Shown here: positions 8,390 to 41,251 of the stretch, in pieces | How positions within the stretch are numbered: the stretch's first letter is position 1 | Layout: every line of letters starts with the position of its first letter | Source of the DNA: a virus | Taxonomy: Duplodnaviria > Caudoviricetes | Length of the DNA: 50,517 nt | Direction: 5' to 3' (one strand) | Virus record (IMG/VR): IMGVR_UViG_3300044737_000122 | Location: 1-50,517 of that record | Position numbers and translations under genes: made by a program | The notes under the pieces: model-generated | The model's input: the letters and a program-made list of their open reading frames with translations, nothing else | What the model was told of the DNA's origin: nothing | Databases searched by the model: none

Positions 8390-8620
8390 TCAGGCGTGGT
8401 CGCGCGTGTTCTCCGGCTTCCAACCCATGACCTTGAATTTCAAGAAATCCCCAACCTGCGCCGCAACCTCGCAGTTCTCCTTGTCCTTTCCGTAAGTCGT
8501 CACTTGCTCGACGCCTCCGCGACCAACACGGCGGGCAATAATGATAACCTGGTCGTACCCATATTTGTGAGCCACTAGCTCGGCCGCTTCTACTGGAATT
8601 GGTTTTGTCTCCATATGCAT
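8390..8620 (-). CDS. phage hypothetical protein
   Basis: last ORF of the leftward early operon. Confidence 0.65.
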   Translation of the reverse strand: MHMETKPIPVEAAELVAHKYGYDQVIIIARRVGRGGVEQVTTYGKDKENCEVAAQVGDFLKFKVMGWKPENTRDHA

Positions 8621-8630
8621 TGTGTGAGGC

Positions 8631-8795
8631 TTAGCTAGTAGGCTTCTTGGGTCTTATCGGCTCCATGGTGTCGGGGTCTACGCCCAGCAGGACGAGGCCG
8701 ATACGGTGCGTGACCACTTCGCGGTGCTCCTCGGAGCAAAAGCCGCCGATATAGGTCTGAATGGTGTCCTGCTTTTCACATCCGATGATGCACAT
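8631..8795 (-). CDS. 54-aa Cys-containing hypothetical protein (MCIIGCEKQDTIQTYIGGFCSEEH...)
   Basis: fills the gap in the operon; read manually. Confidence 0.45.
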   Translation of the reverse strand: MCIIGCEKQDTIQTYIGGFCSEEHREVVTHRIGLVLLGVDPDTMEPIRPKKPTS

Positions 8796-8835
8796 AAGTG
8801 TTCGTCAATGGGTCGCGCAACCGATTGTGCGGCCG

Positions 8836-10431
8836 TTAGATGAATAAGAAGTCGGCGGCCTTCCATGACCCGTCCTCATGGACGATCAGTCCCTTTGATC
8901 GAGCCATACTCTTGGCTTTGATGTAGCCGGAGCTGAGTGGTGAGTACTGGCTTTTCTCTGCGAGCGTGATGTCATCGAGACTGGCTGTCTCCAGGAGCGG
9001 GCCTAGCACTCGCTGCTCGGGGCCGGAAAGAACACTCAGAATGAACCGATGTAGCTGCTCTTGCGTGAGCACCTCAGGTGCAGTGTTAGCCCTTGATCGA
9101 CCAGAAGGGGTAAGCTCCAGGCCATCCACGTAACCGGCGGTGCGACACATACTTAGCGCCTTGATGAACCCGGATGATTTGACACTGTATTTTGCACATG
9201 CAGCGACGAGGGGAAGCTCTCTAGGTACATTCGCGTACTCAAGCATCGCGATGGCGTCGATGATGCGCATTTCTGGGCCGGTGATGTTATCAGAGGCGAC
9301 GGGGTTTACCTCAGGCGCAGCGCGCGGCTGCGGAGAAGGCCTCGCCGGCGCGGCGACCTTTTGTGCAATTCGCACTGGTTGCTGGCGAAGTGCTGAAATG
9401 GCGCTGGTGATGGGCGCCAAGGCCTGCTCAAGTCGGGCTAGCTGCCCTTCTTTGAGGACCGGCACTTCAACAGTCTTGATCTTCTCTTGCGGGATTTTCT
9501 GGATCGGGCGGTTTCTGAGTTGTGTCGTAAGGTCTTTTACTTGCTGCTTCAATTCAGCAACGGTCCTAGCCTCTTGCTCGGCTTCTGCGGGAAGGTCCGC
9601 CAGTTCCCCAAGAACGCGCTTGATGGCGCTTGTTGGTGGTACGGTCCGCGTGAGCGCGCGGGAGCCGGCTTTGGGATGCGTGGTGGCGACTGGTCCGATC
9701 GTCACGCGGGTGACTTCGTCAGAGATAGCCGGCCCGAACGCATAGAATTCCCCAGGCTTGAGGGCGCGCAAGGAAAGCATCTGCTCGCGGGACATAAAGC
9801 CAAGCTCATCGCCTGCGCGCTTCATGTCGATGTCCTGTGTGGCTCGGCCGATCAGTTTGTTGTTGCACTCTGCGGCAGCATCCTTGTTGAGCTTCGAGAT
9901 ACGTTGAGTGGCAAGCACAGCACAGTAGCCCCGCTTCCTGCCGAGCGCAGCTAAACCGATCACCGCATCCATCGCCTCGCTCTGTCCTTTCTCGGGCGCG
10001 TAGGTGTGGGCCTCGTCGATCACGACGATGCAGGGGTGCCAAAGCTCCTTAGGTGCGTTAATTAAGGCGTCGAGGAACAGCCGCACGAAACGCTTACGCT
10101 CCTGCGGGTGCAGCTCGTATAGGTCGATGATCGCCGACACCTTAAGCTCCAGCAATTTCCGGGCGAGTAGGGCGGCGCTGCGTGGCTCCGCGGGCGTGTC
10201 GCCGTCTTTGCCGGCGAGTATGAAGTCGTGCTTCTCCCGTAGCGTCGAGAACTCGCCCTCAGAGTCGATAACGATCTGCTGCACCTTGCCGTGAGTCTGC
10301 TCGAGGAGCCGGCGGAGCGCCCAAGATTTGCCGCCGCCGGAGTTGGCCTGGACGAGCAAGCGGCTCTCGATGAGCTTTGACAAGTCGATACTGGTGTTGT
10401 CGTTCAGCTTTATTTTTGTGTCGTCCGCCAT
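8836..10431 (-). CDS. HerA/DUF87-like P-loop ATPase with coiled coil and C-terminal wHTH-like region
   Basis: ANSGGGKS Walker A, IVVIDEAH Walker B, LATQR motif. Confidence 0.85.
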   Translation of the reverse strand: MADDTKIKLNDNTSIDLSKLIESRLLVQANSGGGKSWALRRLLEQTHGKVQQIVIDSEGEFSTLREKHDFILAGKDGDTPAEPRSAALLARKLLELKVSAIIDLYELHPQERKRFVRLFLDALINAPKELWHPCIVVIDEAHTYAPEKGQSEAMDAVIGLAALGRKRGYCAVLATQRISKLNKDAAAECNNKLIGRATQDIDMKRAGDELGFMSREQMLSLRALKPGEFYAFGPAISDEVTRVTIGPVATTHPKAGSRALTRTVPPTSAIKRVLGELADLPAEAEQEARTVAELKQQVKDLTTQLRNRPIQKIPQEKIKTVEVPVLKEGQLARLEQALAPITSAISALRQQPVRIAQKVAAPARPSPQPRAAPEVNPVASDNITGPEMRIIDAIAMLEYANVPRELPLVAACAKYSVKSSGFIKALSMCRTAGYVDGLELTPSGRSRANTAPEVLTQEQLHRFILSVLSGPEQRVLGPLLETASLDDITLAEKSQYSPLSSGYIKAKSMARSKGLIVHEDGSWKAADFLFI

Positions 10432-10434
10432 ACG

Positions 10435-10911
10435 CTAGAAGGGAATGTCGTCGGGATTGATGTCCTCTTCCGGGTAGGGGATAGGCGCTGCGCTCGCTGT
10501 GGGCTCGCCAGAACCGCGTTCGGACGGGGGGCGCTGGTCTGTATCATCCTCGGGCGCAACGTCCTTTGTAGGCCCGTTTACGGTGCCTGGGCGTGGGCCA
10601 AACTGGACGCGATCGGCGATGATCTCCGTGCGGTATTGCTTGCCCTTCTCCGTGGTTTCCCACGAGCGCGTCTGAATACGCCCTTCGATGTGGGCGATGC
10701 TGCCTTTCTTCAAATATTGGGCGCAGCTCTCGGCCTGCTTACCGTAGACGACGATGTTGTGATACTCGGGCACATCCACCTTCTTGTCGTCTTTTTTAAC
10801 GGTGCGGTTGGTAGCGATGCCGAAGGTTGCCACTGAGCCGCCGCTGGTAAGAGCCTTGAGCTCAGGATCGCGAGTAAGGTTGCCGAGCAAGAGAACTTTG
10901 TTGAGATTCAT
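10435..10911 (-). CDS. ssb: single-stranded DNA-binding protein
   Basis: MNLNKVLLLGNLTRDPEL...EGRIQTRSW...DDIPF acidic tail. Confidence 0.97.
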   Translation of the reverse strand: MNLNKVLLLGNLTRDPELKALTSGGSVATFGIATNRTVKKDDKKVDVPEYHNIVVYGKQAESCAQYLKKGSIAHIEGRIQTRSWETTEKGKQYRTEIIADRVQFGPRPGTVNGPTKDVAPEDDTDQRPPSERGSGEPTASAAPIPYPEEDINPDDIPF

Positions 10912-10914
10912 AAA

Positions 10915-40312: not shown

Positions 40313-40494
40313 ATCGTTTGATTCGTGGTGCGCTTCGCCTTCCCGCCCTTCGTGCCTTCCCTTGAAGCGCGTAGCGGATCGTTCGCGAAGTTGCCCGGAT
40401 TGCTGTGCTTACCCTGCGCCCGCCCGCCTCTCGCGGCGATTTCGCGCCTCCGCTCCGGGCTCATTGAAGCGAACCCTTTTTTCTCATGTCCCAT
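40309..40494 (-). CDS. KGG-repeat stress protein (YciG/GsiB/Con-10-like)
   Basis: GFASMSPERRREIAARGG and GNFANDP.RAS..G.KGG. Confidence 0.85.
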   Translation of the reverse strand: MGHEKKGFASMSPERRREIAARGGRAQGKHSNPGNFANDPLRASREGTKGGKAKRTTNQTI

Positions 40495-40502
40495 ACAGTC
40501 GA

Positions 40503-40853
40503 TTAGTTGTCCCAGCGAATAATCTTGCGCCCCTCGCCGTCGCGGAAGTTACCGCAAAGGATGACGATCCAGTCGATGAAGGCCCACGGGTACGATATCA
40601 GCAGGCCGAATACGCTGAGCGAAAGGAGAAGCTGTATAACGGCGGTCGATGTCTTGCCGACATAAAAGCGGTGGGCGCCACACACGCCAAGGAAGAAGGC
40701 GAGTAGGAACGTTACCAAGCGCGATTTGCTGCTTGCCGGCCGGTAATAGGGCAGACCGTCTTCCACGGTGGTGCGGTCGCCATTGAAGTTGACGGTCGCT
40801 GTGTCGGTGCTCGTATAACGCATGCCCGCGTTGCTGCTCGTCGTCTGATCCAT
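40503..40853 (-). CDS. TM2-domain membrane protein
   Basis: KSRLVTFLLAFFLGVCGAHRFYVGK. Confidence 0.88.
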   Translation of the reverse strand: MDQTTSSNAGMRYTSTDTATVNFNGDRTTVEDGLPYYRPASSKSRLVTFLLAFFLGVCGAHRFYVGKTSTAVIQLLLSLSVFGLLISYPWAFIDWIVILCGNFRDGEGRKIIRWDN

Positions 40854-40890
40854 AAAATATTGATTACTAATATTGCCCGAACCTAGCGCC

Positions 40891-40934
40891 AGTATAGCAC
40901 ACGACCGGTCGTCAAGAGCTTGAGGTGGGGATAA
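40891..40934 (-). promoter_or_regulatory. leftward promoter/operator module of the TM2-KGG operon
   Basis: TTATCCCCAC-N9-TTGACGACCGGTCGT-GTGC-TATACT on the minus strand. Confidence 0.6.
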
Positions 40935-40939
40935 CGGCG

Positions 40940-41251
40940 CTATAAGCCGAGCCGCTGCACGTCGTCAACCGAGCGGACCACGTGGTACAGCGCGCCGGCT
41001 GCCCTGGCTGCGAGCGAGAAGCTTTCCTGCTCGAGAGACATGATGCCGCTCTTTCGCTTCACCTCGAGGAAATACGGGCGGCCCTGATACACGAGGATGA
41101 TGTCGGGTGAGCCCTTGGTGCCAAATCTGACAAAGCTGCCTTTCTTGGTCTCGAACGCTCCTGTGTTGTTGCGCCACCAAAAATGCCGGCGGTAGGTGAG
41201 GTAATCGCAGACCGCCTTCTGTATCTCCCTCTCAAGGGGCTCGGGCGTCAT
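40940..41251 (-). CDS. VRR-NUC domain nuclease
   Basis: EREIQ, GSPDII, FLEVKR..G.MS.EQ..F. Confidence 0.88.
   Translation of the reverse strand: MTPEPLEREIQKAVCDYLTYRRHFWWRNNTGAFETKKGSFVRFGTKGSPDIILVYQGRPYFLEVKRKSGIMSLEQESFSLAARAAGALYHVVRSVDDVQRLGL

Follow-up and report, generated by a model that had tools for sequence, protein, structure and literature searches.

Phage genomes that combine genes with and without recognizable ribosome-binding sites raise the question of whether part of such a genome came from elsewhere, and the locus described here raises it across phyla. The window (the whole stretch of DNA analyzed, 50,517 nt) is the IMG/VR record IMGVR_UViG_3300044737_000122. The original prediction for it was that a core at positions 8390-41251, with genes lacking Shine-Dalgarno (SD) sites, belonged to a phage lineage shared with or derived from Patescibacteria (CPR) and had been framed by alphaproteobacterial integration and accessory modules. 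The observation behind this proposal was confirmed, and its interpretation is partly supported.

The window holds a single prophage beside a tRNA gene

The window opens with host chromosome (1..4619), in which an FG-GAP protein is encoded at 2678-4372 (Pfam FG-GAP_3), followed by a minus-strand tRNA-Thr (TGT) gene found by ARAGORN at 4620..4694, which forms the left boundary of an element of ~46 kb (4667..50517); the right end of the record falls within the integrase gene or at its edge. Positions 1-525 share 67-70% nucleotide identity with chromosomes of the N. vulgaris family, and in at least 5 genomes the matching contig also carries a tRNA-Thr 3-7 kb away. Copies of the tRNA-Thr gene itself with 100% identity occur in at least 25 of 301 searched genomes of the family. 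The left flank, together with the tRNA, upholds the predicted location in an alphaproteobacterial chromosome. Logan contigs of 27.1 and 46.0 kb from two runs (X1 and X2), compared with the window over positions 3000-13000, begin at ~4665-4667, at the tRNA (the 46,023-base X2 contig at 4667), and the size of the X2 contig suggests that the element ends near the integrase.

We considered whether core and flanks had been mis-joined during assembly, or whether the CPR-like gene for the single-stranded DNA-binding protein (SSB) is a chimeric insert. The 50.5 kb virus record stands by itself, and the two runs with the element may be its own source samples and hence not independent. However, the Logan contigs span position 8390, the left core/flank junction, with 0 differences and at a depth that is flat over 4665-13000 (11.2 in X1 and 19.9 in X2), and the GC3 of the SSB gene (0.71) is close to that of its neighbors. 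Further, an independently assembled prophage contig of N. vulgaris DSM 10236 (NZ_JAVDPZ010000034.1; 36,348 bases; also an IMG/VR record) keeps the same order over both junctions and carries the same SSB type, likewise between a HerA-like ATPase and YopX. We regard an artefact of this kind as hardly credible. We conclude that window positions 4.67-50.5 kb are a single temperate tailed phage that sits next to tRNA-Thr on a Nitrobacter/Bradyrhizobium-family chromosome, and that the flanks, as the contigs and the N. vulgaris synteny indicate, are part of the same element and the same phage lineage and not separate alphaproteobacterial modules around a foreign core.

Gene content of the phage

The anatomy of the phage was read from Pfam and PHROG assignments, by which its head is of the Mu type and its tail looks non-contractile. 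To the left of the core lie an XRE-type HTH regulator (5139..5507, minus strand; HTH_3, 6e-13) and a small serine recombinase of the resolvase type (5721..6368, plus; Resolvase, 4.6e-39). The early operon, on the minus strand, comprises a HerA/FtsK-like ATPase (8836..10431; DUF87, 1.9e-08; 67% identical in N. vulgaris) and an SSB of the Parcubacteria housekeeping type (10435..10911; PF00436, 1.4e-32), both without an SD site, two YopX genes (10915-11319 and 11316-11672; PF09643, 6.4e-23 and 5.5e-13), and an AAA_24 (Sak4-like) recombination ATPase (11650..12666; 3.9e-20). An inserted accessory region (12967..15440; GC3 0.60-0.61) holds a Shedu SduA_C gene (12970-13845, plus; 1.9e-21) and a 485-aa ORF (13983-15440, minus), each with GAGG before its start. 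The lysis region (15477..16434, minus; 71-78% identical in N. vulgaris) contains a small membrane-like ORF and an M23-like peptidase. The YopX pair, Sak4, and M23 lysin had all been listed as atypical of rhizobial phages; Pfam recovers both YopX genes and AAA_24, whereas the match to Peptidase_M23, at 24.3 bits, is a weak one that falls short of the 28.7 cut-off.

The virion genes run on the minus strand. Tail genes (16766..22406; PHROG 177, 28, and 290) include the tail hub (17966-19447), the tape measure (19450-20916), and the tube (21402-22406; PHROG and Phage_tube_2) and are followed by head-tail connector and unassigned structural genes (22601..29158, syntenic with N. vulgaris), among them a Mu gp36-like adaptor (23572-24474; Phage_Mu_Gp36). 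The head genes encode the major capsid protein (MCP; 29221-30153; phrog_1005, 1.7e-89), a cement/decoration protein (30179-30544; phrog_673, Phage_cement_2), a Mu I-type protease (30564-31829; phrog_328, Mu-like_Pro), a Mu-type portal with a C-terminal head-morphogenesis domain (32842-35085; Portal_Mu, 1.2e-56), and the large terminase (TerL; 35091-36716); the portal and terminase segment (32842..36716) matches phrog_113, phrog_241, and phrog_2. Two accessory genes lie on the opposite, plus strand: an ORF at 31862..32821 (GAGG precedes its ATG; GC3 0.57) and a DUF4238 gene at 37343..39802 (6.4e-15; GC3 0.65). A minus-strand gene without an SD site encodes a TM2-domain protein (40503..40853; TM2, 5.8e-18; 74% identical in N. 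vulgaris). Beyond the core, also on the minus strand, come the anti-restriction protein ArdC (41355..42227; ArdcN and MPTase-PolyVal), which is kept in the N. vulgaris phage at 69-71% identity, SD-led accessory/early genes (42301..48887; SD sites at 42918, 44163, and 47715) that by Pfam include those for an N6/N4 methyltransferase, a CHC2 zinc-finger protein, a Replic_Relax protein, a 681-aa ATPase, and a 382-aa ORF, and a tyrosine integrase with an arm-binding domain (49396..50517; Arm-DNA-bind_3 and Phage_integrase) at the record end. Pfam scans of 40 window ORFs revealed no transposase. We note that cultured-phage relatives are remote: the best matches reach at most 39% identity for SSB, at most 35% for the MCP (Mu-like phages of Ralstonia, Burkholderia, and Pseudomonas), and 49% for Sak4 (a Pseudomonas phage), and TerL gave no tblastn match at 1e-5 among 50,697 phage records.

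Core genes are depleted of SD sites

The five AT-rich start contexts that had been quoted and the SSB peptide were all located on the minus strand, with ATGs at 10911 (ssb), 30153 (MCP), 30544 (cement), 22406 (tube), and 40853 (TM2). Scoring GGAG, GAGG, or AGGA at -17..-4 as an SD 4-mer, and assigning starts by a simple longest-ORF rule, which lowers every SD count and was also used for the controls, we found an SD 4-mer before 2/34 core minus-strand genes compared with 6/17 flank genes (Fisher p = 0.012) and 75/277 (27%) N. vulgaris chromosomal genes (p = 0.005); internal ATGs of the same core genes gave a background of 11/107. With the same ORF caller, SD-using control phages span 40-62% (26/44 in Staphylococcus phage StB27, 45/72 in Roseobacter phage RDJL Phi 1, 17/43 in RcapMu, and 19/45 in BcepMu). 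The flank genes named as SD-led are so: GGAGG precedes the ATG of the XRE gene at 5507, AGGAGG precedes that of ardC at 42227, and the 6678 ORF has AGGAGG as well. Core leaders are poor in G (6-21% at -11..-2) and have T at -1 in 64% of cases, neighboring genes at 21 of 35 core junctions overlap or lie no more than 12 nt apart, and the mean folding energy of 60-nt windows is -9.2 kcal/mol at starts compared with -16.2 at internal positions (Mann-Whitney p = 4e-11).

The phage as a whole is alphaproteobacterial

A foreign core might be expected to differ from its flanks, and a comparison of codon usage had been proposed as a check. Core and flanks showed no break in composition: core GC3 is 0.78, its relative synonymous codon usage (RSCU) correlates with that of the flanks at r = 0.95 and with that of the N. 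vulgaris chromosome at r = 0.90, and its GC and codon usage match both the flanks and Nitrobacter. The relatives of core proteins point the same way. TerL shares 67-68% identity with proteins encoded on Bradyrhizobium contigs of 7.8-8.1 Mb; its named relatives are from Bradyrhizobium (two strains), Rhodospirillales, and one Planctomycetota MAG, with none from CPR, the N. vulgaris prophage contig supplies a Nitrobacter relative at 80% identity, and its atlas neighbors are viral and Planctomycetota clusters, a taxonomy that runs counter to the predicted CPR affinity. The Sak4-like ATPase is 81-89% identical in Nitrobacter, where a 3.9 Mb contig bears relatives of both SSB (75%) and Sak4 (81%). 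Within the N. vulgaris family the lineage is sporadic (TerL in 1/301 and SSB in 1/301 sampled genomes), and its long alphaproteobacterial residence rests on a handful of genomes. Overall, we conclude that the phage as a whole is an alphaproteobacterial lineage and not a recent import from CPR.

An SSB of the Parcubacteria housekeeping type

The SSB is the part of the core for which the proposed CPR kinship stands. Its full-length identity with CPR SSBs is 47-63%, compared with 32% with the N. vulgaris host SSB. Among the 120 matches listed, 8 relatives carry an organism name, namely 5 Patescibacteria (58-63% identity) and one each of Nitrobacter (75%), "bacterium," and Acetobacteraceae; its atlas neighbors are Minisyncoccota and Sungiibacteriota clusters, and its C-terminal tail is that of CPR SSBs, ending ...YP.EDINPDDIPF. 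On CPR chromosomes the gene lies in tatD-rpsF-ssb-rpsR (4/4 loci tested), and an S18 gene is present at 75/80 CPR-type metagenome SSB loci, which have no other gene in common with the window. We assign the phage protein to the Parcubacteria/Paceibacteria housekeeping type, and it probably came from that lineage.

The direction of transfer was read from trees. A first tree, built with few outgroups, arranged the phage-type SSBs as a grade at the base of a CPR clade of 90 rows, and in a larger tree a 22-row viral SSB clade is sister to the CPR radiation; both would suit the reverse history, in which the SSB type arose in phages, a Parcubacteria ancestor swapped in the phage gene, and the prophage retains the ancestral version. 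However, the same larger, better sampled tree places the phage clade of the window deep inside the chromosomal CPR radiation, next to an Adlerbacteria/Paceibacterota subclade. Monophyly of the chromosomal CPR SSBs appeared in 0/200 bootstrap trees and, when imposed on the tree, lowered the log-likelihood by 33.3 lnL units; further, the chromosomal genes sit in the widespread rpsF-ssb-rpsR arrangement, as vertical inheritance predicts. An approximately unbiased (AU) test did not formally reject chromosomal monophyly excluding the phage clade (p = 0.073), so the CPR-to-phage direction, which we infer, is not proven. We consider the reverse history quite improbable.

SD independence is a trait of the TerL clade

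All 46 of the 46 viral loci with a TerL at least 41% identical to that of the window are SD-poor, at GC contents of 0.32-0.62 (pooled, 50/393 ORFs with SD at GC of at least 0.5 and 29/436 below 0.5), and two loci with a TerL just 27-32% identical have 32-46% SD. SD independence characterizes the entire TerL clade, the low-GC branch of which (0.32-0.50) includes complete genomes of 36-42 kb. These results might be taken to mean that the whole lineage, and not the SSB alone, came from phages of SD-less CPR (Parcubacteria) hosts and then moved into Alphaproteobacteria, retaining SD-free leaders and the SSB while base composition adjusted to the new host. The placement of the SSB among Parcubacteria-type housekeeping SSBs would fit, as would the SD-poor low-GC branch; Parcubacteria-type chromosomal contigs are themselves SD-poor (37/501 ORFs), and when leaders are compared position by position in subsamples of equal size, the clade shows its highest correlation with CPR chromosomal genes (r = 0.51-0.54; alphaproteobacterial phages 0.32-0.39, Bacteroidota phages 0.25-0.29, N. 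vulgaris chromosome 0.13-0.23). One Sak4 relative, on a contig of 3.5 kb, is named Candidatus Colwellbacteria (64% identity, 75% query coverage). According to published reports, some Parcubacteria have lost the anti-SD motif (Tsurumaki et al. 2022, PMC9297842), and Paceibacteria MAGs contain prophages of ~44 kb (PMC12455944).

Against this, the named TerL relatives and the composition of the core carry no trace of a CPR source, and 0/80 CPR-type metagenome loci share another window gene. An SSB of this type is absent from 10/10 near-complete low-GC or distant TerL-clade records, which indicates that the SSB and the structural module have separate histories. Further, Bacteroidota phages share the SD-free style (4-6% SD, 51% T at -1), so the style is not specific to CPR. 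We think it unlikely, at perhaps a minor but real chance, that the whole lineage originated in CPR hosts.

The account that we favor, and consider probable as a whole, is that of one alphaproteobacterial prophage from an SD-free, TerL-defined clade with a CPR-derived SSB gained by old transfer. In this uncultured clade, the conserved early (recombination) and late (virion and lysis) genes would be translated without SD pairing, by two routes: G-poor, weakly folded leaders, presumably caught via ribosomal protein bS1, and translational coupling over the very short gene junctions. Alternatively, the core genes may be transcribed without leaders. Accessory genes such as those for ArdC, the methyltransferase, the XRE regulator, Shedu, and others have ordinary SD sites and would have been acquired later. 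The recombination module would consist of the Sak4-like ATPase acting with an SSB descended from the CPR housekeeping protein, a cross-phylum acquisition since adapted to high GC.

Comparison with known systems

The closest known system is the N. vulgaris DSM 10236 contig, which is syntenic with window positions 18.5-42.2 kb at 55-85% amino acid identity (TerL 76-85%, portal ~80%, MCP 58%) and shares the SSB (74%), Sak4 (89-93%), the HerA-like ATPase, ArdC, and the TM2 protein. Its orthologous genes are also SD-free (4/25 with SD). It has a single YopX-like match (to the second window YopX, 45%), and its matches include no counterparts of the window Shedu, DUF4238, relaxase-like, and integrase genes; it consists of phage genes alone, with no chromosomal flank. 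BcepMu, B3, RcapMu, and related phages share the head module, that is, the Mu gp29-family portal (PF06074), Mu I-type protease, cement/decoration protein, phrog_1005 MCP, and gp36-like adaptor. Unlike Mu-type phages, the phage described here has a tyrosine integrase and lies beside a tRNA, and SD sites precede 6-8% of its genes compared with 40-42% in BcepMu and RcapMu.

Recombination modules that pair Sak4 with an SSB reportedly occur in temperate phages, from work on phage HK620 and relatives. As in those modules, an AAA_24 (Sak4-like) ATPase gene here lies near a phage SSB gene in one operon, but the partner SSB is of the CPR type. In Parcubacteria/Paceibacteria that SSB is encoded between S6 and S18, on contigs with a GC of 0.31-0.57, whereas the phage gene, with a GC3 of 0.71, sits between an ATPase and YopX. 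Bacteroidota phages and Parcubacteria without the anti-SD motif resemble this phage in having SD at background, G-poor leaders, and T at -1 in 42-64%; Bacteroidota phages also have a strong A at -3 (55-59%, compared with 27% here). Unlike in those SD-less systems, the host family here uses SD before at least 27% of genes (N. vulgaris), and the two cultured alphaproteobacterial control phages have SD before 40% and 62% of theirs.

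Core and flanks form one prophage in an alphaproteobacterial chromosome

The window, which is the entire 50,517-base virus record, begins on its left in host chromosome. Positions 1-525 share 67-70% nucleotide identity with chromosomes of the N. vulgaris family, and in at least five genomes of that family a tRNA-Thr gene lies 3-7 kb from this match on the same contig. The window has the same layout, its sole tRNA being a minus-strand tRNA-Thr (4620-4694) with 100% identical counterparts in at least 25 of 301 family genomes screened. Contigs of 27,086 and 46,023 bases from two soil-metagenome runs (X1 and X2), which may be the source samples of the window, start at ~4665-4667, at the tRNA-Thr gene, and both showed 0 differences and flat depth up to the end of the compared stretch (3000-13000). 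In a third run (X3), only the tRNA and host-side pieces were present, and the missing prophage cover there was not counted as evidence. The 46.0-kb contig size fits an element spanning the tRNA gene to just past the tyrosine integrase gene (49396-50517); its right end is probably a tRNA-derived repeat just past the end of the record. Integration is thus marked by the integrase, the host-like flank, the tRNA-Thr gene, and the contigs starting at it. The original prediction had described a core (8390-41251) inside an alphaproteobacterial chromosome, set between separate integration and accessory modules. The chromosomal setting is borne out, but contig continuity and the host-like flank and tRNA indicate that the core and its “flanks” are one ~46-kb prophage in a chromosome of an alphaproteobacterial family.

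When one genome per species was scanned with the MCP (29221-30153), a single locus was found, in N. vulgaris DSM 10236, where the relative occupies a whole 36,348-base contig (G001 C34, containing loci L004 and L005) that is itself an IMG/VR record. This locus is syntenic with 18.5-42.2 kb of the window at 55-85% amino-acid identity. On the same contig, a match to window positions 7594-7770 adjoins the HerA-like ATPase gene, and the ArdC match adjoins the TM2 gene; hence, both core/flank junctions are conserved in an independent assembly. The large terminase (TerL) and the single-strand DNA-binding protein (SSB) type of the window were each found in 1 of the 301 sampled genomes of the family, N. 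vulgaris itself, and the lineage is therefore sporadic there.

If the core came from Patescibacteria (CPR), as originally proposed, its composition carries no trace of this: GC, GC3, RSCU, and tetranucleotides gave no sign of a foreign origin. A low-GC island was ruled out, as GC is 0.52-0.68 in each 1-kb bin of the window and no bin falls below 0.52. Core GC is 0.60, compared with 0.31-0.57 for CPR-type contigs, so that neither base composition nor codon usage is that of a CPR host; GC3 is 0.78 in the core versus 0.72 in both the flanks and the N. vulgaris chromosome. Core RSCU correlates with that of the flanks (r = 0.95), the N. vulgaris chromosome (0.90), and the N. vulgaris prophage (0.98). 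Tetranucleotide usage of the core gave r = 0.80 against the host sample and r = 0.84 against the flanks, compared with 0.96 between host chunks and the rest of the host, and such a gap would be ordinary between a phage and its host. We conclude that the phage is a resident alphaproteobacterial lineage that is compositionally adapted.

Conserved core genes lack Shine-Dalgarno sites

The start contexts and the SSB peptide quoted in the original prediction are all present in the window. To score Shine-Dalgarno (SD) sites, one ORF caller was used throughout, which takes the longest ORF, the criterion being GC3-GC2 in high-GC DNA and length in low-GC DNA; a site was counted when an SD 4-mer (GGAG, GAGG, or AGGA) occurred at -17..-4. 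Such a 4-mer precedes 2 of the 34 minus-strand core genes (internal-ATG background, 11/107), compared with 6 of 17 flank genes (Fisher p = 0.012) and 75 of 277 N. vulgaris chromosomal genes (Fisher p = 0.005), and the claim that the core lacks SD sites therefore stands. With the same caller, SD sites were scored in 26/44 genes of Staphylococcus phage StB27, 45/72 of Roseobacter phage RDJL Phi 1, 17/43 of Rhodobacter phage RcapMu, and 19/45 of Burkholderia phage BcepMu, which indicates that the caller picks up SD sites where they are present; both cultured alphaproteobacterial control phages use them (40% and 62%).

After refinement of their starts, the flank genes ardC, XRE, and the 6678 ORF showed the strong SD sites claimed for them, as did the methyltransferase, CHC2, and ATPase genes. 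Within the core, GAGG precedes three accessory genes, namely the Shedu (SduA_C) gene and the 485-aa ORF (13983-15440), which together lie within 12967-15440, and the 319-aa ORF (31862-32821); their GC3 is 0.57-0.61. The DUF4238 gene (37343-39802), on the opposite strand, has a GC3 of 0.65 and no SD site. The accessory genes in the core look like defence-type morons, and accessory genes that combine SD sites with a lower GC3 (0.57-0.65) appear to have been added later. Overall, the split between core and flanks is one of old versus new genes of one phage, not of two phyla.

The N. vulgaris contig is likewise SD-poor in the orthologues (4/25), and SD-INDEPENDENCE is a trait of the TerL clade, the uncultured phages grouped by this protein. 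A scan of viral contigs with the TerL alignment gave 48 loci, and SD sites are scarce in all 46 whose TerL has ≥41% identity (0-29% per locus; pooled, 50/393 ORFs in loci at GC ≥0.5 and 29/436 below), compared with 46% and 32% in the two loci whose TerL is 27-32% identical. Within the clade, a high-GC branch (GC 0.56-0.62, TerL 62-90% identical) can be told from a low-GC branch (GC 0.32-0.50, TerL 41-58% identical), which includes complete 36-42-kb genomes with terminal repeats; four loci of GC 0.55-0.60, with TerL only 42-43% identical, fall outside both. Viral contigs carrying closer relatives of the window SSB are also SD-poor (pooled, 100/830); the three viral contigs with the highest values (33-57%), L052, L064, and L068, carry divergent SSBs that lie outside the CPR-type cluster in a 141-row tree. 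A viral-contig scan with the Sak4-like protein gave 8 loci; with the N. vulgaris locus (L209) left out, 4 of the 7 tabulated are SD-poor, and SD sites are commoner in the three whose Sak4 is least identical.

The SD-free starts of the core resemble those of CPR-type chromosomal contigs, in which an SD 4-mer precedes 37 of 501 ORFs, but the likeness is not specific, as Bacteroidota phages have 4-6%. The chromosomal count agrees with Tsurumaki et al. (2022; PMC9297842), who detected the anti-SD motif in 48% of Parcubacteria.

Leaders of core genes are weakly folded

We noted that, of 35 junctions between core genes, 21 overlap or span no more than 12 nt, and that 60-nt windows at starts fold at -9.2 kcal/mol versus -16.2 kcal/mol internally (p = 4e-11), with local GC down to 0.50. 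Short junctions and weak folding at starts fit SD-independent initiation with translational coupling: ribosomes would initiate on unstructured leaders and, alongside this, might be coupled across the short or overlapping junctions. This mode of initiation occurs in Bacteroidota and at many genes of Alphaproteobacteria. Alternatively, core genes may have leaderless mRNAs.

The -25..-1 leaders of 33 core genes (8390-41341) contain 17 copies of the tetramer CTAA, compared with 1.2 expected from the coding background, and in at least seven of these genes CTAA ends at -11..-13. The copies include upstream stop codons as well as ones located inside upstream coding sequence. A leader-start motif, AAAGGTCGAA, was rejected: it has 4 one-mismatch matches in the window versus 2.5 expected, and 28 of 100 shuffles equalled this. 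The 8-mer AGGTCGAA, with two or more copies in 22 of 93 viral loci versus ~11 expected by a rough reckoning, is a weak lead.

A T at -1 was found in 64% of core genes, 42-53% of genes in the TerL clade, and 42% of CPR chromosomal genes, compared with 15% of N. vulgaris chromosomal genes and 11-16% in SD-using phages. As a CPR signature, this feature was ruled out by two Bacteroidota phages (4-6% SD) with a T at -1 in 51%, and at this coarse level the leader style is not CPR-specific. In equal-size subsamples, the positional pattern of the TerL clade correlates with that of CPR chromosomal genes at r = 0.51-0.54 (5th-95th percentile, 0.37-0.66); the corresponding values for the other sets are 0.25-0.29 (Bacteroidota phages), 0.32-0.39 (alphaproteobacterial phages), and 0.13-0.23 (N. 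vulgaris chromosome). The finer leader pattern of the clade is thus closest to that of CPR chromosomal genes, a likeness that is suggestive only.

The SSB is of the Parcubacteria type

The SSB (10435-10911) had been likened to those of Parcubacteria, and several comparisons substantiated this. Among the 120 matches listed, the closest clade (65-86% identity) includes Nitrobacter sp. TKz-YC02, and the next tier (58-63%) carries the names Paceibacterota, Patescibacteria (twice), Parcubacteria, Adlerbacteria, “bacterium,” and Acetobacteraceae; one further cluster has an Adlerbacteria member. Independently, the nearest SSB clusters in the atlas are Minisyncoccota and Sungiibacteriota. In an alignment with CPR SSBs, the fold-wide pattern is the same and the C-terminal tail identical, and the window SSB is 47-63% identical to CPR SSBs versus 32% to the N. 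vulgaris host SSB, which is on another contig; the SSB on the N. vulgaris prophage contig is 74% identical. This SSB type was also found in 80 metagenome loci (47-61% identity, GC 0.31-0.57, contigs up to 588 kb), with the order tatD-rpsF-ssb-rpsR in all four loci tested with Pfam and an S18 gene in 75 of the 80, an operon context that identifies it as the housekeeping SSB of CPR-type organisms. In the 141-row tree, the window/Nitrobacter clade (17 rows, SH-aLRT 98) is nested inside the chromosomal radiation and adjoins a subclade with named CPR sequences. Tree position, identity, and the operon context of its kin place the window SSB in the Parcubacteria-type clade. The “Acetobacteraceae” SSB (P0085), on a 3.2-kb contig, sits among the rpsF-ssb-rpsR CPR chromosomal rows, and its name is probably due to mis-binning.

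A move of the SSB from CPR to the phage lineage is favoured but not proven. In a 75-row tree, built with roughly half of the chromosomal rows and a minority of the other viral rows, none of 200 bootstrap trees set the chromosomal rows apart on one side of a branch, and forcing their monophyly cost 33.3 lnL units with an AU p of 0.073; it is this p value and the reduced row set that keep the direction unproven, despite the bootstrap and likelihood results.

The SSB was ruled out as a marker of the TerL clade, being present in 0 of 10 low-GC or distant TerL-clade records; no SSB-like ORF was found within the 48 TerL loci. Its absence from the 10 records indicates that the SSB is a mosaic part and not a clade marker. 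One 3.6-kb metagenome contig (L109) has a ~100-aa gene, not rpsF, in front of a CPR-type ssb, and this gene is common to six low-GC TerL-clade loci (39-48% identity); L109 is a mosaic link of the low-GC branch to phages with this SSB type, not a host assignment. Two viral contigs (L037 and L043) carry, adjoining a CPR-type ssb, a recA 62-66% identical to CPR-type chromosomal recA and are either recA-carrying CPR phages or fragments of CPR genomes that were classed as viral. The short stretches of exact DNA identity that viral loci have in common with CPR contigs were rejected as att- or spacer-like links, all 40 inspected of 74 lying in or at ssb, and the matches of loci L186, L194, and L196 to CPR contigs are conserved FtsK-type ATPase motifs, which are not diagnostic.

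Virion genes point to alphaproteobacterial relatives

A CPR-derived core would be expected to have kin of its virion genes in CPR, and here the evidence diverges from that of the SSB. With TerL (35091-36716), 374 relatives were found at E ≤ 1e-5 among 8000 scored candidates. The best 120 of the 374 include Bradyrhizobium sp. GM5.1 (68%, 8.1-Mb contig), Bradyrhizobium sp. ORS 285 (67%, 7.8-Mb contig), Rhodospirillales bacterium 69-11 (63%), and a protein (P0167, 70%) in one 90% cluster with a Planctomycetota MAG protein; no CPR is among the organism names on these 120, most matches being nameless. In the atlas, TerL has viral and Planctomycetota clusters as its neighbours, and the 80 CPR-type loci have no window gene except ssb. 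Another TerL relative (P0231, 824 aa) contains the intein-type Pfam domains PF14528 and PF13403, which suggests a terminase interrupted by an intein. The Sak4-like protein (11650-12666) is 81% identical to one of Nitrobacter sp. TKz-YC02 (3.9-Mb contig) and 89% to that of N. vulgaris; a match named Candidatus Colwellbacteria (64% over 75% of the query) is on a 3.5-kb contig.

The lineage cannot be placed through cultured phages, as neither megablast with window 14000-37300 nor tblastn with TerL (1e-5) gave a match in 50,697 phages. Identities to cultured phages reach at most 35% for MCP, ~35% over half its length for the portal, and at most 39% for SSB, 49% for Sak4, and 36% for YopX.

Overall, the SSB and the general style of the starts are CPR-like, as the original prediction proposed, but the virion genes have no demonstrated CPR kin, and we regard descent of the whole lineage from CPR phages as unlikely. 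Similarly doubtful is a TerL clade that spans phyla, in which the low-GC branch would infect SD-less Parcubacteria and the high-GC branch would have jumped to Nitrobacteraceae/Bradyrhizobium, keeping the CPR-type SSB and start pattern. If true, it would be the first traceable phage lineage to move between CPR and free-living Proteobacteria, perhaps via epibiont-host contact.

As a resident alphaproteobacterial lineage, the phage has start signals that differ from those of its host, its conserved genes lacking SD sites in a family that uses them at ≥27% (N. vulgaris). An SD-free conserved set together with SD-led accessory genes implies that a phage lineage can inherit its start signals and need not mirror those of its host, and these signals tell old from new genes in a mosaic genome. 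The SD-poor uncultured clade, with GC of 0.32-0.62, is a handle on SD-independent initiation and its bearing on host shifts. A Parcubacteria housekeeping-type SSB in an alphaproteobacterial phage is a concrete and datable case of transfer between phyla in which CPR bacteria took part; exchange of genes between CPR and other bacteria is poorly documented. Because N. vulgaris DSM 10236 is cultured and carries a close relative, these questions are open to bench tests.

Gene content and comparison with Mu-like phages

Pfam confirmed the SSB, the two YopX proteins, and the AAA_24 (Sak4-like) protein named in the original prediction. The latter matches PF13479 (3.9e-20, residues 14-208), and the SSB gene lies two genes downstream in the same operon, so that the domain and the nearby phage SSB gene together place it in the Sak4 (AAA_24) family; in other phages, the annealing activity of Sak4 is boosted by the cognate SSB. 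The proposed M23 lysin did not hold up, its match to PF01551 (24.3 bits, residues 104-148 only) being under the gathering cut-off of 28.7, and the M23-like similarity is a lead and not membership of the Peptidase M23 endolysins.

The tailed-phage nature of the element is evident from matches to phrog_2 (1.2e-21), Portal_Mu (1.2e-56), and phrog_1005 (1.7e-89) and from tube, tape measure, and hub genes. The 747-aa portal ORF (32842-35085) combines a Mu-type portal (residues ~23-535) with a head-morphogenesis PHROG match (residues 633-719), the domain layout of a fused portal/MuF-like protein. A Mu-type head set is present, comprising portal gp29, protease I, MCP T, and gp36 (PF06074, PF10123, phrog_1005, and PF07030). 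Pfam found no transposase family among the 40 window ORFs scanned (small ORFs in part only), the tyrosine integrase being present instead. The window thus has head genes in common with Mu-like transposable phages but differs from them in carrying an integrase in place of the DDE transposase and transposition ATPase, which were not found.
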